This document shows, piece by piece, positions 1,603 to 37,860 of a DNA stretch of 54,213 bases. The stretch's first letter is position 1; each line of letters begins with the position of its first letter. This stretch comes from a virus: the UHGV virus genome UHGV-0121358. One strand, written 5' to 3'. Position numbers and translations under genes: made by a program. The notes beneath the pieces are model-generated. The model ran no database searches, was not told where the DNA came from, and saw only the letters and a list, made by a program, of their open reading frames with translations.

Positions 1603-4600
1603 TTATGCTGTAGTTGATGCGCTGAATGATCCTGTTCCTCTTGATACTAGCATTGTTGGAGAATACAAAGCTGTACAATATGAGTAGCCTTCTGATGCTG
1701 ATGTTTGTGGGCAATATATTTGCCCGGTAATACTTGATGCCGTTAAACCAGAAAAAGCGCATTGCACTGTTAATGTGCATCCACCATAAGGAACGTAATA
1801 TTGAATTGTTTTACTTTTACCTCCGCAACTAAACGTTACGTTATAAGTTGATCTATATTCACCAGATGCTAATGAAATCGTCGCCATAAGCATAACTGAT
1901 TTCCTCAATGGACTATCCGTGCTGTCGTTATATGTGATGGTTGCGTTATAACTTCCGTTATACCCAAGCACTCGATCTGGACCAACCCCCATGTTAGCAA
2001 CATCACCAACAAACGTTTTAGCTTCCACCGTTCCTGTGAATTTACCGCTACTTGCATACACCTTGCCCCTTACAGTTACGTTGTTGAACTCCGCGTTGCC
2101 ATTTTTATCAATCATCCACCCGGCAGATCCTGATGCGTAGTTTGTTGACTGTATTCGCTGTGCAATCTTAGCGGTAGTGATAGCTGCATCTGCAATTTTA
2201 GCCGTCCCTATTGATGCGTCTTTAATAAACGCTTCGCGCACATACATTGCGCCATTGGTGACATAGAAAGGCGATTGATATGTGCCGTTTGCCGCAGTCA
2301 TTAACACGAAGCGATCAACCAGGAAAATACACTGCGATTGAAAGTTAGTCCCGTCACCAGTAAGGCCAAGCGACATACCTGTTGCGTATGTTCTGCCGTT
2401 GCTATCTGTTGCCAGCTTGATTGAATACGACGCATCTACATTACCTTTAAAGTCGGTAAGCGCTTTCGATGTTGTCTCTATAGCGGTTTTGTTCCCGTTA
2501 ACGGTCACTGTCAACTGATCAATTTTGCTTGATAATGCTTCGTCAGCCGTTGCCATAGCCTGCGACCATTCCGTGATGCTTGAATTTACATCTTCGAAAG
2601 ACGCCGAGATCTGGACAAATTTTTCAGCGCTTGATGCCTCGTGATTTGCGAGTGCCGTTGAGACATCCATTATTTTTGCTGAAATGTTTTCATTAATATT
2701 TGCCTCAAGCGATGCTATAGCCTCCGCGCGGGCCTGGGTTTCGTCTGCTATTGCTGTATCGATCCTTGCTATTTCCGCTTTTGTTTTTATCTGGCCTTTC
2801 CTGTATTTCGCCTCAATAACAGTGCCCATCTTGCTTTGCGCTATTGAGTTGTTGATAAGTGCAATCGAGGCGTTTTGCAGACTTGCTTTCGCCTGTTCTA
2901 TCTTGTCGCTGTTTTTATCAACATCACTTTCAACAGAACCAAGCTCCGCGCTGATGCCTGATATTGCCTGTGCGCGGGCGCTTGATTCATCGGCAATCGC
3001 CTGATCCAAGCGTTTAACGCTGGCGTTCGTGCTATTTTCAAGCGTTGTTAAATCAGCCTTAACATCCGTTATTGCGTCGCTTCTTGCCTGCGTTTCATCT
3101 GATATTGCTTTATCAAGGCGGGAAACGCTGGCGTCAGTTTTCTTATCAAGATTGCTTATTGCTGCGTTTACACCGTTAATAGCTTCAGCGCGGGCGCTGG
3201 CCTCGTCAGCAACTGCGCGTTGCACGTTAGAGATTTGGCCTTTAAGGTTGGAATCCATCGTATTCATTTCTGCCGTGATGGTTTCCAGTGATTCCGCAGT
3301 CGCTTTTTTCTCTTCAGCGATAACGTTGTCAATACGGTCAATTTCCGCCTTCGTCTCTGTTCTACCTTTTTTGTACTGAGCGGTAAGAGTTACACGGGTG
3401 TTAGTCTGTGCAAGTGAGTTATTAATAAGAGCAATAGAAGCGTTTTGCAGGCTTGCTCTTGCTTGCGCCAGTTCGCTGTCAACTTTTTCGCTAGATACCT
3501 CCAGCGAGTCTATTCTAGACTCATGCTGTCCAATATCATCGGCGTTTTCCTTAACCTTTTTATAAAGATCTTCCGTTTCTTTTTTAAGTGTATCCGTGTC
3601 AGCTTTTATTGACCCTGTTTCTGTGATTAGGTTGTCAGTAGCAGTTTTAAGGTCATTCGTAGCGCTTTCGATAAGATCGGTGCGGTCGCCAAGATCCTTA
3701 ATATCACTTACCATTCCCTTAAATTGCTCTGAATTCATCACGTCTTTGGTGACGTAATCGGTGATTTCATCAAAGTTTTCTGTTGGCTTGCCTGATGCTT
3801 CAACGAAGTCTGACACACCAAAGGCATTACGCGTGCGCACATAAACGTAATAGGTGTGCCCCGTGTTCATGCCGCCAAAAGTCCACTGATGACCACGCCC
3901 GGTATATTGTGCTTTAGTGGTTACTGATGCCGGATCGGTGATTTGTGTTTCACCTGAGTAATAAAACTCATAACTAGTGTCAGTGGTAAGCGTTGTTCTG
4001 CTGATCGGGTAAACTGTAGCCTGAAATACACCGGGAACCCAGTTAACTCCTACCGGGGCCGCTGGTGCGCCAATAACCAGATCCACAATGCTTTCCGCAC
4101 CCTTCATGCCCGTGTCATTTCTGCCACGAATGCCTAGTGAGTAGTTGCCAGCATCAATACCATAAAAATCATAACTGTAATTCGTAGTTTCGTAGCTTTT
4201 AACTACGGCCCCCTCTGAATTATATACGCGGATTTCAAATGTCAGGCGATGAGTTGTCGTCAGTGTTTCCCATGTTGCGCGGCATTGAACTGTTTCAGAT
4301 CCAATATTTAACACCTTCAGGTTTTCAATGTTCGGTACGCGGAAGTGATTAAGCGTGTCGTTGTTGACCTCAAAGATTGCGCCATTATCTACTACAGCCT
4401 GTTTGTGCGGGTCATGCTGTGATGCCTCTACAGTGTACACGCTATTATTTTCTGTTTCTGCTACGCTGGTGATTCGACACAATACGGGTTTTGCTGCGTT
4501 AGTTGACACAGCAAATACAGTACCGTTACGAATCCATGCCGGGGCGGATGCAAGGGTAATTTTATTTCCGCTAACTCCGGTGATCTGGTGTTTTTTAAAT

Positions 4601-6183
4601 TTGCCATCACTATCAAGCAGGCTGATGGTGTCACCAGGGGCGATATATTCAGAATCAACTTTATCGACCGTGATAACCCTGCCATTGTTTGCCACGATGC
4701 GACCGCCTAAACGAGCGCCTGCGCGGTTATTGTCGAGTATCTCGATAATATCACCAGGGGTGAAGTGAATTGCGTCACGGGCCATTTTAAACGTGAATTT
4801 TGACGGCTCGCGTTTTGCTGTTTCTATCAGCCATTTGCCAGCGCGGTACGCTTGCCCGCGTGACGTGCAACCGAAAGCCTCTAGCGTGGTTTCGTTATAA
4901 CCATCGCGGGCGATCAGTTCATCATCTGCCACATATTCTTTTGATTGCTCCCAGCCGTTTTCTGGGTCAGTCCATGATACGATCACGGCGTTGTAACATT
5001 CTGCAAGCGGAAGGCTTGAGCGAGTAAACGCGCCATCAACGACGTTTGCATTTGTGATGGTGGCAATTGGATCTTGTGGCGCATCAATCATCACGGTAAG
5101 GCGTTGCCCGTCCCATAACGCGATGCCACGGAACATACCTGCGATGTTATCCAGTAGGTCGCGGGCGCTCATTTGCTCCGTAATGTAAGCGTTGAGAGTC
5201 ATGCGAGGTTCAAGGCCACCATAGCCATCATCAACCAACTGATCGCAGTATTGAGAAAGCACATACAAAGCGCCATCATCAACATCAATGTAACCAGCAT
5301 GTCTAGCAAGCCCAAAGCGCTCGTTTTTAACCAGATACCGGAAAATCCACGCAGGGTTATTGGTGTACGCTTTTTTGAATCCACCAAGCCATAAACCCGA
5401 ATATGTGCGCGTTTCTGTGTTGTAGTTATCAGGAACATCAACAATCAGGCCGCGAAGGTGATAGGTACGGGTGGGCGTATCAGTATACTGATCATGGTCA
5501 ATTACAGCGCCAGCCACGGCGGTATGAGGATAAGACAGGTTATCATCTATTATTTCGCTGTAACTACTCCACCGCGTATCATTCCGCAATAGATCGCTGT
5601 TGCTGTCTGCTGTTATGCGACGAACGCGAATATCAAACGGCTTTTCATCAGGCGCGTTGATAACGTGAGCTTCCAGGTATTCACCACTCTGTTTACCAGG
5701 CCCGATTGTAATGTATTTAACAGGCGACCACGTCGATGATAATGATGGCTTAACATCAACCATTAACACAACGGATGTATTGTATTGATTGCCCTTATCA
5801 TCTGACTGAACGAGAGCATCAACACCAAGATTCAACCTGACGCGGGTAACGTTTGGATCTGAAACAGTCCTGATTATTGGCGTGTCGTGAGTTACCTTTG
5901 CGTTGACGATAACGGTTGATTCGATGGCATTAAAACCATTAATCGGCGATTGGTCAGCCGTGCCGTTGCGCCAGGCTATACTAATCCCCGGGATTGATGT
6001 ATTCCCGTTTGCGTCAGTAACAGGTGTGTCATTAAGCATCACATCATTTAGTGGCGCCTTCTGGTTTACCGGACCGTATATCGGCCCTTCGCTGAGAATA
6101 TCTAAAACACGATAAAACTGTTTATGATACAGGTTATCGTTTAATAATACTGGTGTCTTGGCTTTGCCGCCGCCGCTACTCAT
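1603..6183 (-). CDS. J: host specificity / central tail fiber protein J (tip attachment), 1526 aa with expanded coiled-coil middle region
   Basis: Track ORF. N-terminus and several blocks (GPIYGPV, DTPIIRT, WSSYSEIID, RTYHLRGLIVDVPDNYNTETRTYSGLW, FGCTSRGQA, HFTPGDIIEILD) match my recollection of lambda gpJ; sits after I/K/L as in lambda. Confidence 0.9.
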   Translation of the reverse strand: MSSGGGKAKTPVLLNDNLYHKQFYRVLDILSEGPIYGPVNQKAPLNDVMLNDTPVTDANGNTSIPGISIAWRNGTADQSPINGFNAIESTVIVNAKVTHDTPIIRTVSDPNVTRVRLNLGVDALVQSDDKGNQYNTSVVLMVDVKPSLSSTWSPVKYITIGPGKQSGEYLEAHVINAPDEKPFDIRVRRITADSNSDLLRNDTRWSSYSEIIDDNLSYPHTAVAGAVIDHDQYTDTPTRTYHLRGLIVDVPDNYNTETRTYSGLWLGGFKKAYTNNPAWIFRYLVKNERFGLARHAGYIDVDDGALYVLSQYCDQLVDDGYGGLEPRMTLNAYITEQMSARDLLDNIAGMFRGIALWDGQRLTVMIDAPQDPIATITNANVVDGAFTRSSLPLAECYNAVIVSWTDPENGWEQSKEYVADDELIARDGYNETTLEAFGCTSRGQAYRAGKWLIETAKREPSKFTFKMARDAIHFTPGDIIEILDNNRAGARLGGRIVANNGRVITVDKVDSEYIAPGDTISLLDSDGKFKKHQITGVSGNKITLASAPAWIRNGTVFAVSTNAAKPVLCRITSVAETENNSVYTVEASQHDPHKQAVVDNGAIFEVNNDTLNHFRVPNIENLKVLNIGSETVQCRATWETLTTTHRLTFEIRVYNSEGAVVKSYETTNYSYDFYGIDAGNYSLGIRGRNDTGMKGAESIVDLVIGAPAAPVGVNWVPGVFQATVYPISRTTLTTDTSYEFYYSGETQITDPASVTTKAQYTGRGHQWTFGGMNTGHTYYVYVRTRNAFGVSDFVEASGKPTENFDEITDYVTKDVMNSEQFKGMVSDIKDLGDRTDLIESATNDLKTATDNLITETGSIKADTDTLKKETEDLYKKVKENADDIGQHESRIDSLEVSSEKVDSELAQARASLQNASIALINNSLAQTNTRVTLTAQYKKGRTETKAEIDRIDNVIAEEKKATAESLETITAEMNTMDSNLKGQISNVQRAVADEASARAEAINGVNAAISNLDKKTDASVSRLDKAISDETQARSDAITDVKADLTTLENSTNASVKRLDQAIADESSARAQAISGISAELGSVESDVDKNSDKIEQAKASLQNASIALINNSIAQSKMGTVIEAKYRKGQIKTKAEIARIDTAIADETQARAEAIASLEANINENISAKIMDVSTALANHEASSAEKFVQISASFEDVNSSITEWSQAMATADEALSSKIDQLTVTVNGNKTAIETTSKALTDFKGNVDASYSIKLATDSNGRTYATGMSLGLTGDGTNFQSQCIFLVDRFVLMTAANGTYQSPFYVTNGAMYVREAFIKDASIGTAKIADAAITTAKIAQRIQSTNYASGSAGWMIDKNGNAEFNNVTVRGKVYASSGKFTGTVEAKTFVGDVANMGVGPDRVLGYNGSYNATITYNDSTDSPLRKSVMLMATISLASGEYRSTYNVTFSCGGKSKTIQYYVPYGGCTLTVQCAFSGLTASSITGQIYCPQTSASEGYSYCTALYSPTMLVSRGTGSFSASTTA

Positions 6184-6196
6184 GGTTTTTCTCCTG

Positions 6197-6727
6197 TTAA
6201 CTTACAACGTCTAGAGCGTCTCTGTTATTACTTGTGTCTATGCCTAACGACCCGACGTTTGAACCTATTTTCATTTCGCCCAACAGGATCGGCACTGGTC
6301 TACCCTGGCCTACCTTGTTTTCAATGCTGGTGTAGGTGTTATTAGATATGGTGTTATCTTGTGCGCTTTCTGCTGATGTTTTTATCTTCATGTTGCGAGA
6401 CATAAAGATCGAGAACGCAACGCTAACAACCGAAACACCGATCAAAATCCAGCCTACAACGCCAATTCCTGCAATACCGCCTTCCACCACTGGCGCAACA
6501 ATGACAGTAGTCCCGTCCGGGTATTTACTGTTAACCGCTGCTGGCGCGGTCTTTTCGTCATAATCTTTCCCGGCAATTCGTAAGCGCAACGGAGTGCTTA
6601 AAAACGCCTTTTTGAACTCATGATTCTGCGCAACCAGCAAGCCAAGTCCTTGCGCTGGCGTATCAACGTTTAAACACACCTTGCCGTAATATCTTCGAAG
6701 ATTGCCCGTAAATCTAAATTTGAGCAT
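6197..6727 (-). CDS. I: tail assembly protein I
   Basis: Track ORF; position between K and J; C-terminal ILLGEMKIGSNVGS resembles lambda gpI (VLYGEMRVGSRV). Confidence 0.75.
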   Translation of the reverse strand: MLKFRFTGNLRRYYGKVCLNVDTPAQGLGLLVAQNHEFKKAFLSTPLRLRIAGKDYDEKTAPAAVNSKYPDGTTVIVAPVVEGGIAGIGVVGWILIGVSVVSVAFSIFMSRNMKIKTSAESAQDNTISNNTYTSIENKVGQGRPVPILLGEMKIGSNVGSLGIDTSNNRDALDVVS

Positions 6728-7407
6728 TTGTCAGATCTCCATATTGAGTTGGTCTGTCGAACATACGCGGGCCGCATTTGTTCGCGGCGGCTTAACAGTC
6801 CGGCATTGTCATGATGCAAAACAGTGTTATCGCCCAGGTAAATCATCGCGTGACATGGGTCAGCGCCTTTAAACGGCTGGCGGATAATCACATCACCAGG
6901 CTGAATACTTTTCGCGTCAACCATGAAAAACCCGTTCAATGGCAGGTTTTTTATGTACAGGTTTTCCCCACGCAGCCACCATCCGTCGTGGCGTTCAAAA
7001 TCCGGTAGATCCACGCCGCAAAGGTGATAGGCGTCACGAAAAAGCGAGTAGCAGTCTGTTTTCCCGTGCTCAAATTTACGGCCTAACAGGTGCGCCACCG
7101 GGCGGAATTTTCTAACCCTGCCACCGGAACACAAATACCACGGCAGGCCTGAAATAACCTGCTGTTGTCGATCCCGTGCTGACAATACCAACGAATTGTC
7201 AGTATGGGAGTGAAAAACGGCAGTTATAACGCCTAATTCGTCAGCTTTGATATAATCGTCAGGCGAGATTTTAAAGCTGTTGTGCGGCGTTTCAGACACG
7301 TTGGCGCACGGGTAAAAATAATCGTTATCTATCACCAGCCCGCACACTTCCTCGCACTGGTGGGCTGCCGCATAGCGAATCATTTTATCTTCAAGTGCCA
7401 TAATCAA
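6670..7407 (-). CDS. K: tail assembly protein K (JAB/MPN plus NlpC/P60-like)
   Basis: Track ORF; JAMM-like HSHTDNS...S..D motif and Cys/His NlpC/P60-like residues (DCYSL, HHDN); overlaps L stop by 4 nt and I start as in lambda. Confidence 0.8.
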   Translation of the reverse strand: MIMALEDKMIRYAAAHQCEEVCGLVIDNDYFYPCANVSETPHNSFKISPDDYIKADELGVITAVFHSHTDNSLVLSARDRQQQVISGLPWYLCSGGRVRKFRPVAHLLGRKFEHGKTDCYSLFRDAYHLCGVDLPDFERHDGWWLRGENLYIKNLPLNGFFMVDAKSIQPGDVIIRQPFKGADPCHAMIYLGDNTVLHHDNAGLLSRREQMRPAYVRQTNSIWRSDKCSNLDLRAIFEDITARCV

Positions 7408-8108
7408 CCCACCTTACTGGACCCAGGGAAGCACGAAATCGGTAACGGATTCGGGCGTGGAAAACGCAAACGGCAACCGCTAAGGCGGTGGCTGCATTTG
7501 TCCAGCTTTGGATCACTGGTAGATTCGTCTTTATCGGTAGCTACAGGTCCACCACTATATCCGCAACCGTCGCCGCGATATTGCCATTGGCAAACGTCAG
7601 CGAGGATTGTGCGCCCTGGGATAACCGCCTTGTCAGCATCAATTGGCGTTGACAGTTCATATTGCACCTGGTCGGCTGTTTCTTCGCTCATCGCCTCAAC
7701 GACGTAAAAAGACACCGCCTCGATAGATGGATCTGCATCCGGGTTGCCGTTTGGGAAGTTGATGGCGTCCAGGTATTTTACTTCCACCTGGCGGCGTGTA
7801 ACCTTCATTCCTCGCAGGTCGTTGAAATCGTTGTTCATCCCGGTGATTAGCCCGCCAATGTTGGCTACTACCATCTGCGGGCGTGAGTAAACGCCTTCGT
7901 TTTTCATTTCGAAGCCAGTGGCCTCGATTGGGTAGCTGTTGTAAGTCACTCCCTTCCAGATAACCGGGCCGTAATAGCCATTCGCTCCGGAATGGAAGCG
8001 GATAACCTCGCCACCCATGGGCGTGAGGTCTAATTCAAACAAGTCAATGACCGCGCCGACTCCGGCATCGACGGAATCAATAATCATCTCTCTCGGAATA
8101 TTGCGCAT
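7404..8108 (-). CDS. L: minor tail protein L
   Basis: Track ORF 7404..8141 begins at a GTG; internal ATG (MRNIPRE...) has GGTGAG SD. C-terminal CGYSGGP...DKCSHRLSGCRLRF matches lambda gpL (CGYSGPA...DKCSKCLSGCKFR). Confidence 0.85.
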   Translation of the reverse strand: MRNIPREMIIDSVDAGVGAVIDLFELDLTPMGGEVIRFHSGANGYYGPVIWKGVTYNSYPIEATGFEMKNEGVYSRPQMVVANIGGLITGMNNDFNDLRGMKVTRRQVEVKYLDAINFPNGNPDADPSIEAVSFYVVEAMSEETADQVQYELSTPIDADKAVIPGRTILADVCQWQYRGDGCGYSGGPVATDKDESTSDPKLDKCSHRLSGCRLRFPRPNPLPISCFPGSSKVG

Positions 8109-8161
8109 TTTCTCACCTTGTAATTTTGTGATCTGCGTCACGCTAAATCATACCAAAACGG

Positions 8162-8190
8162 TTGATCGCGATTTTTACAATATGTATATT
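8162..8190 (+). promoter_or_regulatory. sigma70-like promoter for plus-strand moron cassette
   Basis: -35 TTGATC (8162-8167), 17-nt spacer, -10 TATATT (8185-8190), directly after the L gene start on the opposite strand. Confidence 0.35.
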
Positions 8191-8206
8191 GTACTCAAAA
8201 GGAAGC

Positions 8207-8392
8207 ATGGTTAACAAAATGGCGCTGAGGTGTGAAATGGATGATAAGGTGTGGAGGTTGACGGTGTTCCTTGCTGATGGCAGGAAAATGACTGTGGCCC
8301 TGTATAAAGATGAAGGCGAGGCACTTACCGACGCGCTCTTACTCGCTGAAGATGAACGCGTTTTGGGGTACAGGATCGAACCTGTCAAATGA
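8207..8392 (+). CDS. hypothetical small protein (moron gene 1); alternative start 8237
   Basis: Track ORF 8162..8392; in-frame ATG at 8207 after AAGGAAG, or ATG at 8237 after GAGGTG. Confidence 0.4.
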   Translation: MVNKMALRCEMDDKVWRLTVFLADGRKMTVALYKDEGEALTDALLLAEDERVLGYRIEPVK

Positions 8393-8404
8393 GAGGTTAA
8401 CGAA

Positions 8405-8755
8405 ATGCAAAAATATAGTTTAGAAATATGGACTGATAAGTGTGAATGGGAGCGCATGGGCCTGTTTGACACATACGCCGCAGCGCGTGATGAAGGTAGT
8501 GAGTTACTTCGCTGTTGGTCTGGCGCTCGTGATTTTGATATTACTCCGGTCCAAGTACCGGACCTGGTGGAAGAGATGAACCCGAAAGATATTAACTTTA
8601 ACGTCAATGTTGAATTTGCAGACTCTATGGATCAGGCTTGCCCTGGTGAAATACACGCAAAAGGTTTTCCGGCTGACGATCCAGAAGCAAAACGAGAATA
8701 CGAAAAAGCTGCGAAAGACTTCTGCATAGATAACCTGGCCGCATTCGATAAATAA
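8405..8755 (+). CDS. hypothetical protein (moron gene 2)
   Basis: Track ORF; GAGAGG SD 8 nt upstream of ATG; no recognised motif. Confidence 0.5.
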   Translation: MQKYSLEIWTDKCEWERMGLFDTYAAARDEGSELLRCWSGARDFDITPVQVPDLVEEMNPKDINFNVNVEFADSMDQACPGEIHAKGFPADDPEAKREYEKAAKDFCIDNLAAFDK

Positions 8756-8764
8756 GGCGGCAAC

Positions 8765-9013
8765 ATGGGGCGGCGCAATCACGGCGATTATGTGTACACG
8801 CTGAAACAGGCCGCCCGCCTCATCGGTTATCATGAGCACGAATTTATTGATTTGCTGATTGAGCGCGGGATACTGTACCAGGTCTGTTTAACGCTGTACC
8901 CGAAAGCGAAATACCTACAGGAAAAGTTATTCATCATCATGACGGATGAAAACCAGGTTAATCATTCATTCGTCACTGATAAGGGATTGACATATTTGAA
9001 GGGGGCGTTATGA
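8765..9013 (+). CDS. hypothetical protein with possible AlpA/excisionase-type HTH (moron gene 3)
   Basis: Track ORF; segment YTLKQAARLIGYHEHEFIDLLIERGIL resembles HTH_17/MerR-type DNA-binding helices (pattern recognition only). Confidence 0.5.
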   Translation: MGRRNHGDYVYTLKQAARLIGYHEHEFIDLLIERGILYQVCLTLYPKAKYLQEKLFIIMTDENQVNHSFVTDKGLTYLKGAL

Positions 9014-9014
9014 G

Positions 9015-9089
9015 ATGTGCGAACATTACGTTCTGGAAATGATCATTATCATTATTGGATTGTTATGCATTCTGCTATCGACACTATAA
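9015..9089 (+). CDS. possible 24-aa hydrophobic mini-protein (MCEHYVLEMIIIIIGLLCILLSTL)
   Basis: Own translation; ATG 1 nt after the stop of the preceding gene, ends 3 nt before the terminator hairpin. Very short, so weak. Confidence 0.25.
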   Translation: MCEHYVLEMIIIIIGLLCILLSTL

Positions 9090-9117
9090 ACCCCGCCGTG
9101 GCGGGGTATTTTTTAAT
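9090..9117 (+). terminator. rho-independent terminator closing plus-strand moron cassette
   Basis: GC hairpin CCCGC-CGTG-GCGGG followed by TATTTTTT. Confidence 0.7.
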
Positions 9118-9295
9118 CGTAGGATAGAAATGCTACTTCTTTGCCATCCCAAGTCGTACAGCCGATATATCCATCACCCATATCATGAAGATACCACGTC
9201 TCGCCGTTATCAGCTTGTACAGTTAGATCATTAATTTCATAGTCGGCAAACAATGTAAAAGCGCCAGTGCGCTCCACTACACAAAAATAAGGCAT
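9113..9295 (-). CDS. hypothetical small protein
   Basis: Track ORF 9113..9325; internal ATG at 9295 preceded by AGGGGAGGGG SD; lies between M and the moron terminator. Confidence 0.4.
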   Translation of the reverse strand: MPYFCVVERTGAFTLFADYEINDLTVQADNGETWYLHDMGDGYIGCTTWDGKEVAFLSYD

Positions 9296-9305
9296 ATCCC
9301 CTCCC

Positions 9306-9659
9306 CTAATTAATAACTTGCTCAAATGTTGCGTTTAGCGTGTATAGCGGTCCGTCTTTAGTCATGCTCCAGCTACGGCAAACAAAAAGCCTTTGCACGT
9401 TATCCATTGACGGCGACCAGTAAAAAGCCTCGACCGCGCCGCGCGCCCTCAAGAATGCTTCCGCCTGGATTGCTACGTTTTCACCATCACCACATCCGGC
9501 GCTACTGCCCTTAAACACCAGGGTGTAGCTATCAAGTAACGGGTTGATACCTTTAACCTGTCTTTGCTCATAACCATCGCCCAGCTTAACAACTGATACG
9601 TCCGGCTCCCTGGTCACGCTGTAGCTTCGTTGCGGCGTCCATCTGAACACTTCCGGCAT
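9306..9659 (-). CDS. M: minor tail protein M
   Basis: Track ORF 9306..9677 begins at GTG; ATG at 9659. FRWTPQ..., GDGYEQRQ and C-terminal FEQVIN match lambda gpM (FRWKV..., GDGYSQRA, FEQVVN). Confidence 0.8.
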   Translation of the reverse strand: MPEVFRWTPQRSYSVTREPDVSVVKLGDGYEQRQVKGINPLLDSYTLVFKGSSAGCGDGENVAIQAEAFLRARGAVEAFYWSPSMDNVQRLFVCRSWSMTKDGPLYTLNATFEQVIN

Positions 9660-9757
9660 AAAACCCCCATAAGTCACATTTTGTATATATCTTTACGCGC
9701 CTCTACGCGAAAAATGAGATCTTAATCACAATGATTATAGCTAGTTTACAAAATGGC

Positions 9758-9786
9758 TTCACATAGTGCGCAACAAGATGTATATA
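9758..9786 (+). promoter_or_regulatory. sigma70-like promoter for second plus-strand moron cassette
   Basis: -35 TTCACA, 17-nt spacer, -10 TATATA; immediately preceded by the recurrent motif TACAAAATGG (9747-9756). Confidence 0.35.
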
Positions 9787-9827: not shown

Positions 9828-9983
9828 ATGAAACGCTATGTAGTGGTAATGCTGAACAACGCATTCGAACAAGTGGAAATAGCAATCGTTAAGGGCTTCG
9901 ACGACGCATTCAAATACGGTCAATTCATGATGAATGCAAAAGAAGATGAATACCGTGATTTCTTCCTGAAGGCACTCAACTAA
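9828..9983 (+). CDS. hypothetical small protein
   Basis: Track ORF 9753..9983; in-frame ATG at 9828 with strong AAGGAGG SD 7 nt upstream. Confidence 0.5.
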   Translation: MKRYVVVMLNNAFEQVEIAIVKGFDDAFKYGQFMMNAKEDEYRDFFLKALN

Positions 9984-10844: not shown

Positions 10845-10865
10845 AAGGCCGCTTATAGCGGCCTT
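10845..10865. terminator. bidirectional terminator hairpin between moron cassette and tape-measure gene
   Basis: Stem AAGGCCGC / GCGGCCTT with loop TTATA; T-rich flank on the minus strand after the tape-measure stop (10870) and moderately T-rich on plus. Confidence 0.55.
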
Positions 10866-10869
10866 AGTG

Positions 10870-13215
10870 TTATTTGCGGCGCGGTTGCAACATCCCGCCA
10901 GGTCTTTGCGATTCCCTTGTTATCATCTTCATTGCTACACGTTCCATTGTTGATTCAAGTCTGCGGCTGTCTTCTTCGCTAAATCCGTTTGTGGTTTGAA
11001 TACTGATACTGACAGGCATACTAAAACCGCCACCGCCGCCAATATCACGACCAGGAATAACCCTGCCGTTCTCGCCTGGGATCATATATTGGTTGCCGTT
11101 AGACGTCTGGAATAGCTCCGGCCTGTTGTGTTCCCCTACGCGGTACATATTGCCACCAATGACGCTACCACCATTAAAGCGACCGCCGCCGAAAATTGAC
11201 GTAGCCAGCGACATGATCGCAGTGAGCGCAGCCGAACCAGCCGCCGCCCAGCTACCGCCAGTTGATGCAGCCGTTGCCGCCGCCGCCGGGGCCGCCGCCG
11301 CCGCGATGCTTCCCTGAGCGGCAACCGCGCTTGCCGTTGTACTTGCTTGAGTTGCCTTGCTTTGTGTTTCCATCATGATCTGATCTGCTATCCAGTCGGC
11401 TGCTATATCAGAAAGTCTGTTGCCAATATTCCCTAGTATATTGCTCCCTAAGTTAGCAAAAACATCGCTCAATGATTGAGTACCGTTAAGCAGGCCGACA
11501 AGCGCATTGCTCATGCCACCTTTAAGGCCATTAACGCAATCACCGATCAGGCCGTTTGTCTGGCTTTGCGCCTGCCATTGCTCCCATTTCAGATCGCGGA
11601 TCTGTTGCTCATAGGCTAACAATGCCTGTTTCTGTTGCGCTTCGGTAGCGCCCAGGTCGATAAGCATTTGCTTACGGACGGCCCATTCATTTTGTACCTG
11701 CTGAATAGGGTCAACCTCGCCTTTAAGCTGATTCATCGGGCTTACTATTTGCGCCCATTTATCACGCAATTCATCTACCGGAATTTGGGCTAATTCTTCC
11801 TTCAGTTCCTTACCTATCCCTTTTTGCGCGGCGCGGTACTCAAGGAGGGTGATTTTACCCTGGGCGAATGCAGCATCAATGGCCTTGCCGTTCTCTAACG
11901 CTTTGCGCATGGCGGCGGCGTCTTTATTGTACTGGTCAGAAACGCTTATACCCTTGTCACCAAGCGTATCCTCTTTGCTTTTCTTGCTGCCACTCTTCTT
12001 ACCCTTTTTAGGCTTATCAACTGGCTTGTCGAATCCGGTGATCTTGCCGTCGTTGGCTTCTGCCTGTTTCTGCATAAACTCATCATAAGCGGCAGTCGCG
12101 TTTTTAATGTCGTTTGCAAAAGTCATGACTTTACCGACTGTAGGGCCGAATTTCTTCTCATTGTTGCTATTTAGTTCTTCCTTGCGCTTATCTACAACCT
12201 CCTTCATCCATTTGTAGGCGTCCATAAGTGCCTTGATTGGCATCACCATTGCGATGATCTTCTCTGCCACCTCGCCAGCCTTCACAGCCACATCATCAAA
12301 CATGTCGATGAATTCGCCACCAGCCGTTTTGAGTGTATCGAAGCAGGTTTTAGCGAATTTAGCGCCCTCACCTAACCCCTTAACGCCTTTTGTGATTAAG
12401 TCGATAGCTGAGACTACGCCATCTGATACGCCGAAAAGATCATCAAGCTGTTCAACAAGACCCATGATTTCGACTTTAAGCTCATTGATAGCCATGCCGG
12501 ATGTGCGCGGCAACTGAGCAAACTGCTCGTTTGTTTCCTGCGTAGCCGCCTGGATTGCGTTAACCATCCTTTCTGCCGTGATCTTGCCGTCCAGCATTTC
12601 GGCGCGGAACTGGCCCATAGATAACCCCATCTGACGGGCCATTGTCTGTACGATGGTCGGGGTGTTTTCAAGTAGGCTGTTAAATTCTTCAGCACGCAGC
12701 ACGCCGCCGTCTATAGACTGGCGGAACTGGCGCATAGAGTTAGACATCTGTTCCGCTGATGCGCCGCCTAACGCCCCCATTTTCTGAATAGTGCCAACCA
12801 GGTTAAGTAATTGCCCTTCCGTAGCTGACGTGTTCTTCAGTGAGATGGCAAGACCTTGCCATAGCTCGCCAGTATCCTTCAGGCTTTGCCCCGTTTCCCT
12901 GGATATTGCTTTCAGGCCGTCGAAAACCCGTCCGGCGGACTCCGCATCGCCCGTAAGCATTTTGATTTTTACGCGAAGCATTTTTGCTTGCTCCGCCATA
13001 TCCATAAATTGGCGCACAGCCTCGGCAGCAATTAGCAAATGGATAACCCTGGTCAGTGCTTTGATGGATGTTTTCAGGGTGTTTACCTGGCGGTCAGCCT
13101 GTTTTGCGCCGCGCTCTATACGGTCAAAGGCCTGGTCTGCCTGTCGTTGTGCAACGAGAAGTTGACCAGTTTTTGCATCAACTTCGTAATAAATTGTACC
13201 TACACTGGTAGCCAT
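10870..13215 (-). CDS. tail tape measure protein
   Basis: Track ORF, 781 aa, largely alpha-helical with Ala/Gly-rich stretches; located upstream of M-L-K-I-J. Confidence 0.85.
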   Translation of the reverse strand: MATSVGTIYYEVDAKTGQLLVAQRQADQAFDRIERGAKQADRQVNTLKTSIKALTRVIHLLIAAEAVRQFMDMAEQAKMLRVKIKMLTGDAESAGRVFDGLKAISRETGQSLKDTGELWQGLAISLKNTSATEGQLLNLVGTIQKMGALGGASAEQMSNSMRQFRQSIDGGVLRAEEFNSLLENTPTIVQTMARQMGLSMGQFRAEMLDGKITAERMVNAIQAATQETNEQFAQLPRTSGMAINELKVEIMGLVEQLDDLFGVSDGVVSAIDLITKGVKGLGEGAKFAKTCFDTLKTAGGEFIDMFDDVAVKAGEVAEKIIAMVMPIKALMDAYKWMKEVVDKRKEELNSNNEKKFGPTVGKVMTFANDIKNATAAYDEFMQKQAEANDGKITGFDKPVDKPKKGKKSGSKKSKEDTLGDKGISVSDQYNKDAAAMRKALENGKAIDAAFAQGKITLLEYRAAQKGIGKELKEELAQIPVDELRDKWAQIVSPMNQLKGEVDPIQQVQNEWAVRKQMLIDLGATEAQQKQALLAYEQQIRDLKWEQWQAQSQTNGLIGDCVNGLKGGMSNALVGLLNGTQSLSDVFANLGSNILGNIGNRLSDIAADWIADQIMMETQSKATQASTTASAVAAQGSIAAAAAPAAAATAASTGGSWAAAGSAALTAIMSLATSIFGGGRFNGGSVIGGNMYRVGEHNRPELFQTSNGNQYMIPGENGRVIPGRDIGGGGGFSMPVSISIQTTNGFSEEDSRRLESTMERVAMKMITRESQRPGGMLQPRRK

Positions 13216-13257: not shown

Positions 13258-13297
13258 TACAAAATGGCTTTACTTCAACGACTCCATTTTGTATAAG
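13258..13297 (+). promoter_or_regulatory. promoter-like region with inverted copies of recurrent motif (TACAAAATGG ... CCATTTTGTA)
   Basis: Perfect 10-bp inverted repeat (13258-13267 / 13284-13293) bracketing -35 TTTACT (13269-13274); -10 TATAAG (13292-13297) after a 17-nt spacer; upstream of lipoprotein gene. Confidence 0.45.
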
Positions 13298-34142: not shown

Positions 34143-34302
34143 AATGCTCTCTCCTTTTTCAGGTGATTTTTACGCATTTCAGCGTTACCGGATTTTTAAA
34201 GAGCATTTTGTTTGTTTGAAGTATACAAAACGGATACATGCGAACAAACAATAAAGCGCCATTATGTGATCCGCATCACACAATGACGCCATTTTGTAAA
34301 CA

Positions 34303-37542: not shown

Positions 37543-37818
37543 TTAAGCCTCAATAACACCGTAATCAAACGTGCCTAAATACCGTTCGATACTTACAACC
37601 TCAATACCATCAATACACCGTTTCCACACAGACACCTGGCTTTCATTTTCTCTGAAGTGCATATTAGAAAGCACTTCATCGGCTGGATAGTCTTTCCCGG
37701 CGACGTAGGCATCGTGACCTACGCCACCTTCTACGCAATAAAGCATCAATTCGCGTTCCATTTTTGCTTCCTCCGCACCGTAAACCTTTTGATTTCGGCT
37801 TACAAAACGGATATACAA
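37543..37818 (-). CDS. hypothetical protein
   Basis: Track ORF; start uncertain. Confidence 0.4.
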   Translation of the reverse strand: MYIRFVSRNQKVYGAEEAKMERELMLYCVEGGVGHDAYVAGKDYPADEVLSNMHFRENESQVSVWKRCIDGIEVVSIERYLGTFDYGVIEA

Positions 37819-37860
37819 TCACAATACAAAATGTATATTTATGTGATCGGAATTACTCGG

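Follow-up and report, generated by a model that had tools for sequence, protein, structure and literature searches.

The 54,213-nucleotide virus genome UHGV-0121358 (the window, meaning the whole stretch of DNA analysed) carries between its tail genes L and M a compact unit on the opposite strand, the L-M cassette, which consists of a promoter, three small genes designated A, B and C, a 24-codon gene for a membrane peptide and a hairpin terminator. We give roughly an even chance to the reading that this cassette represents a moron-type accessory operon which is autonomous, expressed from the prophage and directed to the membrane; its exact activity is much less sure. Expression from a repressed prophage is the defining trait of a moron. 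A prophage-expressed, membrane-directed operon is favoured because sister cassettes in the same tail module encode functions of the lysogen type and because HK97 gp15 provides a precedent. A first-pass annotation, made from the letters of the window, had proposed a self-contained opposite-strand unit between L and M, and every element that it listed is found at or near the expected place. The elements of the cassette and the gene that follows it are given below.

8127-8142, no strand assigned: cyclic AMP receptor protein (CRP)-type box TGTGATCTGCGTCACG, 9 of 10 core positions, centre about -62.5 from the predicted start
8154-8161, plus strand: upstream promoter element CAAAACGG, abutting the -35 hexamer (about -37 to -44); CAAAA(C/T)GG, or CAAAAYGG, in relatives
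8162-8190, plus strand: sigma-70-type promoter TTGATC (8162-8167)-17-TATATT (8185-8190), 9 of 12 matches, predicted start near 8197
8176-8193, no strand assigned: perfect 8+8 inverted repeat TACAATAT-GT-ATATTGTA over the -10 hexamer, candidate operator
8210-8223, plus strand: 13-mer GTTAACAAAATGGC in the 5' leader (+13 to +26), nearly invariant in relatives
8237-8392, plus strand: gene A, 51 residues, predicted soluble beta-beta-alpha-beta domain, phrog_29559, GAGG ribosome-binding site
8405-8755, plus strand: gene B, 116 residues, phrog_38567, variable N-terminal part (1-50) and conserved Cys/His C-terminal domain (58-116)
8765-9013, plus strand: gene C, 82 residues, stand-alone KilAC/ANT domain (PF03374), winged helix-turn-helix
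9015-9089, plus strand: gene for a single-pass hydrophobic peptide of 24 codons, MCEHYVLEMIIIIIGLLCILLSTL (family i)
9090-9107, no strand assigned: intrinsic terminator hairpin ACCCCGCC-GTGG-(G)GCGGGGT, 7-bp stem with 6 G-C pairs, 4-nt loop, ATTTTTT
9113-9295, minus strand: p60, 60 residues, phrog_3249, 10 nt downstream of M

The window represents an mEp021-like (mEpimmI) temperate siphophage of E. coli. A near-identity search gives 87-88% nucleotide identity to members of this group, with matches to mEp021, mEp010, mEp013, mEp044, mEp515, mEp554 and MagusPhagus, and the IMG/VR contig L007 is identical around the cassette region. The mEp021-like clade was described in 2025 as a new family-level group that is common in the (human) gut (PMC11893012). 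Among the 51 loci compared (6 annotated records and 45 IMG/VR contigs), genes A, B, C, p60 and M stand in identical order at all but one truncated match, and every relative also carries a small membrane-peptide gene in the cassette. The ratios of nonsynonymous to synonymous substitution rates (dN/dS), calculated by the Nei-Gojobori method, are 0.19 for A, 0.19-0.20 for both halves of B, 0.04 for C, 0.15 for the 24-codon frame and 0.08 for p60, with 0.04 for L and 0.06 for M, and because of these values all five small open reading frames are regarded as real genes. Constraint on A and B is 4-5 times weaker than on the tail genes, and that on C is like that on L; the identity of gene A among relatives ranges from 38 to 100%. 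The three small genes of the earlier annotation are upheld by this purifying selection, as is its 24-residue mini-frame, which has its own ribosome-binding site and a fixed length in relatives. The intergenic gaps are 12 nt (A-B), 9 nt (B-C) and 1 nt (C-peptide gene), and the predicted transcript is about 0.9 kb long.

Other candidate frames in the cassette were rejected. The 76-codon frame from 8162 is an artefact of how open reading frames are defined: phrog_29559 matches its residues 26-76 only, and gene A is annotated with 51 residues in mEp021, in MagusPhagus and by the Prokaryotic Genome Annotation Pipeline (PGAP), starting at the ATG after GAGG. The minus-strand frames 8143-8607 and 8504-8839 are not accepted as genes since their open length is not conserved; minus-strand frames over the cassette are open for 79 to 183 codons, varying between relatives.

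The sigma70-like promoter previously proposed was recovered by a scan, although the region holds 6 promoter-like matches against 5.9 expected, so that a single match is not above chance; the same scan returns a weak minus-strand site at 8217-8188. In 37 distinct versions of the L-A spacer from relatives, both hexamers are invariant except for C/A at the last base of the -35, and the 17-nt spacer between them keeps its length while its first 4-5 nt vary freely. The composite signature CAAAAYGG-N23-25-TATAW occurs at 6 sites in the 54-kb window against 0.02 expected, with at most one in any shuffle, and each of the three opposite-strand cassettes in the tail module is headed by one of the six. 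It is because of this class signature, the strongest evidence, and of the conservation in relatives that the L-M promoter is read as probably functional, belonging to a promoter class that appears specific to this phage.

Several further elements surround this promoter. The TGTGA and TCAC halves of the CRP-type box are kept in nearly all of the 37 relatives (one has CCAC) and its 6-nt spacer varies; the window has 5 boxes of this type against 1.8 expected, and the candidate box is of the same quality as the lac site. The inverted repeat over the -10 is unique in the window, and about half of the relatives have it with one mismatch (ATATTTTA). The 13-mer of the leader (GTTWACAAAATGGC) has 9 sites in the window at up to 2 mismatches against 1.44 expected (8210, 9744, 13255, 17381, 34288, 35970, 41936, 42779 and 46911); these are mostly intergenic, include the immunity region and at several of the nine overlap the CAAAAYGG element. 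To our knowledge, judged by eye, the 13-mer fits none of the consensus sequences of IHF, LexA, TyrR, ArcA, CpxR and Fis. The candidate repressor operator CTTGC-N6-GCAAG, scanned for over the window, lies in the immunity region only and is absent from the cassette promoter.

At the other end of the cassette, the terminator of the earlier annotation is confirmed as a G-C-rich hairpin with a T-run, strong on the plus strand and weak on the minus strand. The stem ACCCCGC/GCGGGGT is kept in most relatives around loops as different as GTGG, GCGAA, TTCGC, TTCTC and TCCG, and the only Rfam match is a sub-threshold one on this terminator. The cassette thus has its own factor-independent terminator, as morons do.

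In gene B, residues 1-50 form a beta-beta-alpha-beta fold modelled by AlphaFold2 with a predicted local distance difference test (pLDDT) score of about 95. The conserved C-terminal domain has the consensus SMDQsCPGEIHaKGFPADDPeAKREYEKAAKDFCIDNL, with C79 invariant and H84 and C107 almost invariant. An hhalign comparison aligns gene A over its full length with the N-terminal domain of B (probability 77%, E 1.9e-5), and A is a paralogue of this variable domain, a free copy of it. One relative (L059) has no separate A and encodes instead a 172-residue protein made of two N-type domains and the C-terminal domain of B; because of this Rosetta-stone-type fusion, A and B probably work together. A search of 1.84 billion representative sequences with the B profile at full sensitivity returned only 14 proteins, each a member of one family or a fragment of a member, which implies that the family is very small. 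Searched against the sequences of PDB chains, the B profile gives nothing significant (the best matches, to a methylase with E 0.27 and to HepS with E 0.44, are treated as chance), and neither A nor B has a sequence match to any Pfam family.

Met58 of B, in the 8575-8581 region, is nearly invariant, is preceded by GGAAGAG and is the first residue of the C-terminal domain. Stand-alone C-terminal-domain proteins of other phages begin exactly at this residue, and internal initiation at Met58 yielding a free C-terminal domain is possible. The RefSeq (PGAP) label of gene A is 'transporter' in three relatives (L004:2594-2749, L005:2594-2749 and L006:2597-2785); since A is predicted to be soluble and has no transmembrane segment, the label looks like an annotation error.

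Gene C matches PF03374 with 28.7 bits (cut-off 25.3), its residues 10-79 covering profile positions 23-102 of 108, and precomputed PF03374 matches exist for its homologues as well. The possible AlpA-type helix-turn-helix of the first-pass annotation is borne out at the level of fold class, which is that of the MerR/excisionase/AlpA-type winged helix, but the sequence is of the KilAC/ANT type and gives no match to the AlpA family (PF05930, Phage_AlpA). Likewise, its statement that no product matches a recognised family holds for A, B and p60, which match only PHROGs without an assigned function, but not for C. The protein lacks an N-terminal AntA/AntB, Bro-N or Rha domain and is a KilAC domain only; a search of PDB-chain sequences with C found nothing significant. 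The synonymous divergence (dS) of C among relatives is 0.28, compared with 0.5-0.97 in A, B, p60, L and M, which suggests either that its nucleotide sequence is under an additional constraint or that recombination has homogenised it repeatedly. The last 8 codons of C switch allele along with the type of the downstream membrane-peptide gene.

The peptide gene is preceded by an AGGGGG ribosome-binding site 8 nt upstream, and it has exactly 24 codons in 8 distinct versions, all hydrophobic, with 5, 2 and 12 variable sites at codon positions 1, 2 and 3. All relative layouts have at least one single-pass peptide gene immediately 5' of the terminator, and three families are distinguished: family i of 24 residues, as in the window; family ii of 38-49 residues (MKIEVLALIIMGLIVFGVHA...); and family iii of 20-26 residues (MDKVIENVLVVAGAIAIVYAFLN). 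Family i and family ii exclude each other, and family ii may or may not be accompanied by family iii. The peptide matches none of the Pfam families, YebO among them.

A link between the peptide and the C-terminal domain of B is seen outside the family. In three T5-like contigs a stand-alone C-terminal domain of B (56-60 residues) lies directly upstream of a 47-residue peptide of family ii, and this pair adjoins a T5orf172 gene; in a 58-kb phage with a Mu-type portal a distant homologue of the domain is followed, one gene later, by a small transmembrane peptide. Because the linkage repeats in unrelated genomes, it suggests that the C-terminal domain of B and the membrane peptide act together. 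Family-ii homologues provided no further genomic contexts. Among the relatives, which variant of the C-terminal domain is present shows no correlation with the family of the peptide, and this speaks against a tight cognate pair of toxin and antidote.

The first-pass annotation regarded the cassette as an insertion because L and M are adjacent in lambda. This stands in so far as the cassette is extra DNA relative to lambda and Erwinia phage 49; it is not sporadic, the same order being found throughout about 50 mEp021-like phages and prophages. Erwinia phage 49 has the closest L outside the family (69% identity), and there M and L overlap by 4 nt without a cassette; lambda also has L and M without a cassette at this junction. 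Because of the overlap in Erwinia phage 49 and the absence in lambda, the cassette is regarded as extra DNA, and it is probably an old insertion that is now fixed family-wide. Its G+C content is 0.43-0.48 compared with 0.50-0.53 in L, K and M, a modest difference of the kind that marks morons, and the sign of the GC skew flips over the cassette. A published manual analysis of the group counts a KilAC-like gene among the core genes, and the supplements of the same paper contain no mention of the cassette genes (PMC11893012). The surrounding tail genes are as follows.

1603-6183, minus strand: tail gene J
6197-6727, minus strand: tail gene I
6670-7407, minus strand: tail gene K
7404-8108, minus strand: tail gene L (PF05100, E 1e-71), probable start ATG 8108, 234 residues in the annotations of relatives
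9306-9659, minus strand: tail gene M (PF05939, E 9e-28), probable start ATG 9659, 117 residues in the annotations of relatives
10870-13215, minus strand: tape-measure gene H

Within this fixed order, some slots vary. At the B-C junction 7 loci have an extra gene, which encodes about 77-84 residues in 6 cases and is a homing-endonuclease-like insert of the HNH/AP2 type in the other, and C and the terminator are separated by 102 to 800 nt; the small proteins in these variable slots of relatives gave no informative match to a Pfam family or PHROG. Homing-endonuclease-like genes of the HNH type, with or without AP2, are found inside the cassettes of three relatives (L028:4354-4820, L058:5576-6112 and L053:4518-5237). 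Such inserts, together with T5orf172 beside the pair of B C-terminal domain and peptide, hint at the way in which the modules move.

The cassette is not alone in the tail module. The sites of the promoter class and the two sister cassettes are listed here.

8154-8189, plus strand: class site, L-M cassette
9749-9785, plus strand: class site, M-H cassette, CAAAATGG-C-TTCACA-17-TATATA
13260-13296, plus strand: class site, third cassette upstream of H, TTTACT-17-TATAAG; a mirror-image site points at H
37803-37838, plus strand: class site, antisense, in the 42-nt gap between two early genes, no open reading frame downstream
41944-41908, minus strand: class site, near-consensus TTGACT-17-TATATT, 113 nt downstream of the repressor gene, flanked by inverted repeat TTGACTCG/CGAGTCAA
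9715-10865, plus strand: M-H cassette, weak CRP-type box at 9715-9730, bidirectional terminator at 10845-10865
9828-9983, plus strand: first gene of the M-H cassette (A2), 51 residues
10001-10255, plus strand: ParE-like toxin gene (PF24732, E 8e-11), then genes for 34, 61 and 95 residues
13237-14387, plus strand: third cassette, a VasI-like protein of 219 residues (PF11319) and a protein of 124 residues with a weak BamE match, lipoprotein candidate

The comparison shows, at the level of predicted elements, that the three opposite-strand cassettes share one build. The M-H cassette looks like a toxin-antitoxin pair with variable cargo, the 51-residue gene being the candidate antitoxin; this gene was also considered as a relative of A or B, and no relationship is detectable. 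The promoter of the third cassette sits inside an inverted repeat, TACAAAATGG-N16-CCATTTTGTA, and the cassette may be the superinfection-exclusion Lpp locus of the phage group, the lipoproteins of mEpimmI phages being known to exclude superinfecting phages (PMC11893012). As to the remaining sites, that at 37803-37838 could be a source of antisense RNA, and that at 41944-41908 is probably the early lytic promoter toward the N-like gene. A perfect CRP core (TGTGATCCGCATCACA) occurs at 34265-34280 within an element at 34224-34298, between the NinG gene and its upstream gene, with inverted TACAAAAYGG copies on both sides; this three-part layout recurs in the M-H region at 9676-9756.

Beyond the terminator lies p60, the further minus-strand gene noted in the first-pass annotation, whose reality is supported by its presence in all relatives. 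It belongs to the late tail-gene transcript and not to the cassette. Homologues 40-50% identical occur in virulent Rtp/T1-like coliphages (Rtp, Jk06, Rogue1 and others), and p60 is, as far as these matches indicate, a widespread small phage protein that is not family-specific.

A moron-type operon would have arisen and worked as follows. An ancestor of the mEp021-like (mEpimmI) phages would have gained the operon at the L-M junction, where it has since been kept. Its transcription would take place in the repressed prophage or at an early stage of infection, and cyclic AMP (cAMP) and CRP would probably stimulate it. The window encodes a Q-type antiterminator (PF03589, 32041-32763) on the late-gene strand, and because of this late transcription can pass the hairpins at 10865-10845 and 9107-9090. 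Late in infection, RNA polymerase modified by Q would come from M and p60, read through the hairpin and proceed antisense across the cassette to L, K, I and J, and this antisense transcription would silence the cassette. As the two transcripts converge, we infer that the cassette is expressed in the absence of late transcription and silenced during it. A, B and the peptide would act jointly at the inner membrane, with an effect on incoming phages, resembling superinfection exclusion, or on the envelope. Gene C might regulate the operon through the -10 palindrome, or it might dampen the SOS response like the KilAC domain of Listeria AriS.

A number of observations weigh against expression as a moron. 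The cassette is present in all of about 50 family members and is thus core rather than variable, which is unusual for morons. The centre of the CRP-type box, at about -62.5 and at -63.5 in relatives with an extra base, departs from the classical -61.5. The 13-mer is shared by the cassette leader and the immunity region, so that the cassette may be wired into the phage's own circuit, and the promoter class need not be active in the lysogen because its signature also heads the probable early promoter at 41944-41908. The pair of B C-terminal domain and peptide occurs in virulent T5-like phages too, so a role limited to lysogeny is not required. The conserved half of B is poorly modelled, with pLDDT values of 44-60 beyond residues 1-50, and A, B, C, the peptide and p60 have no match in PADLOC-DB 2.0 at E up to 0.1, just as no cassette protein matches NCBIfam or PADLOC models.

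Some of these observations would suit an early lytic module for counter-defence or host takeover, which would come on right after infection or induction, stay repressed in the lysogen and be silenced by antisense transcription in the late phase, an explanation that we consider somewhat unlikely. It would account for a promoter signature common to the cassette and the probable early promoter beside the repressor gene, and for the company of the B C-terminal domain and peptide in the virulent T5-like contigs, where they stand among early-region genes (PhoH, T5orf172 and a Dam-type methylase). At the protein level A and B evolve 4-5 times faster than the tail genes, with alleles reshuffled among the relatives, a pattern that fits an arms race, and the N-terminal fold is like that of many phage proteins of 50-60 residues without an assigned function, which are typical of early regions. 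However, the sister cassettes of the same class encode a ParE-like toxin and a candidate lipoprotein, functions that are usually expressed in lysogens, the cassette promoter lacks the CTTGC-N6-GCAAG operator of the immunity region, and no known anti-defence family is matched. The ParE-like neighbour can also be read in favour of a toxin-antitoxin or abortive-infection unit, akin to the regulator/toxin pair floated in the first-pass annotation, in which a membrane toxin, the peptide, would be neutralised by B and/or A, with transcription regulated by C. At 20-49 residues, the single-pass peptides are comparable to type I toxins in length and hydrophobicity, a helix-turn-helix protein is encoded in the operon, and linkage of the B C-terminal domain to the peptide across phages is what would be expected of a cognate pair. 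Yet three unrelated-looking peptide families alternate without a matching change in that domain; translation of the peptide gene has a good ribosome-binding site to start from and is coupled to that of C, and no antisense RNA is apparent; and PADLOC and Pfam return no toxin or antitoxin model for the proteins of the L-M cassette. Basic ends are common in type I toxins, and the peptides here are acidic at the N-terminus and lack them. This unit seems quite improbable. It is very unlikely indeed that the genes encode accessory factors of tail assembly or the tail tip that happen to lie on the other strand: the position between L and M, universal in the family, would agree with this, but the cassette occupies the opposite strand, has a predicted promoter and a terminator of its own, is absent from Erwinia phage 49 and lambda despite the same tail genes, includes a KilAC domain of DNA-binding type, and has its B C-terminal domain and peptide among the non-structural genes mentioned above in T5-like contigs.

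The prophage-expressed, membrane-directed operon is thus retained as the working explanation. A further reading, which we regard as unlikely, is that the three tail-module cassettes (L-M, M-H and upstream of H) form one prophage regulon through a regulator that would bind a new promoter element, CAAAAYGG at about -40, tuned by cAMP-CRP, and that the C-terminal domain of B and a peptide of 24-49 residues would constitute a new two-component membrane system. In that linked reading, A and the N-terminal domain of B would be specificity modules, and the system, common to temperate and virulent coliphages, would decide phage-phage competition by exclusion or counter-defence.

If the prophage does express the operon, E. 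coli lysogens gain a conserved and possibly nutrient-responsive function, together with a small new protein-peptide module that virulent T5-like phages also carry. The promoter class offers a handle on the coexistence of three convergent cassettes with a Q-dependent late operon whose transcription must cross them. The cassette remains an accessory operon of a familiar general kind, and its interest hinges on experiments.

A moron-like unit in a tail operon is already a well-known kind, and the closest precedent is the gene 15 moron of HK97, reportedly described by Juhala et al. in 2000 and Cumby et al. in 2012. Like the L-M cassette, it is extra DNA in a tail operon of the lambda type, has a terminator of its own and encodes a small membrane protein; it also has its own promoter, which in the cassette is a predicted one. 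HK97 gp15 is a small inner-membrane exclusion protein made by the prophage, which blocks DNA entry of superinfecting phages (PMC3594210). The difference is that HK97 has one gene, whereas here there are four on the opposite strand and fixed family-wide, and expression and exclusion are only predicted for the cassette. Small envelope-directed genes in or next to the tail genes are also known as cor (phi80, N15 and mEp167), llp (T5) and the mEpimmI Lpp, which protect the lysogen or the infected cell from phages using the same receptor (PMC11893012). Their products are lipoproteins that block an outer-membrane receptor, in contrast to the peptide here, which has no lipobox, is a bare transmembrane helix and is accompanied by three soluble partners.

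Gene C resembles the ANT/KilAC regulators (KilA/Ant of P1, antirepressors of the Rha and Bro types, and AriS), exceeding the PF03374 cut-off, and its residues 12-82 align with the C-terminal domains of Ant/Rha proteins from Vibrio, Cronobacter and Stx phages. It differs in lacking an N-terminal domain, in having at most 30-40% identity to characterised members and in lying in a tail module instead of a regulatory region. In Listeria, the isolated KilAC domain of AriS is active alone and inhibits the SOS response (PMC9043618). The N-terminal fold of B, and A by homology, superposes on DUF7336-like proteins with a TM-score of up to 0.84 (target-normalised), but the Foldseek E-values of 2e-3 or weaker are borderline and Pfam does not assign DUF7336 to A or B. 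The promoter region is similar to the class I CRP promoters of the lac type in its TGTGA-N6-TCACG box about 62 bp upstream of the predicted start and its imperfect hexamers; it differs in that the putative box is 1-2 bp off the canonical -61.5 and that an additional phage-specific CAAAAYGG abuts the -35. Compared with the papers and databases searched, the new features are the four-gene opposite-strand operon fixed family-wide, the promoter class specific to this phage, the stand-alone KilAC domain, and the pair of B C-terminal domain and membrane peptide held in common with T5-like phages.

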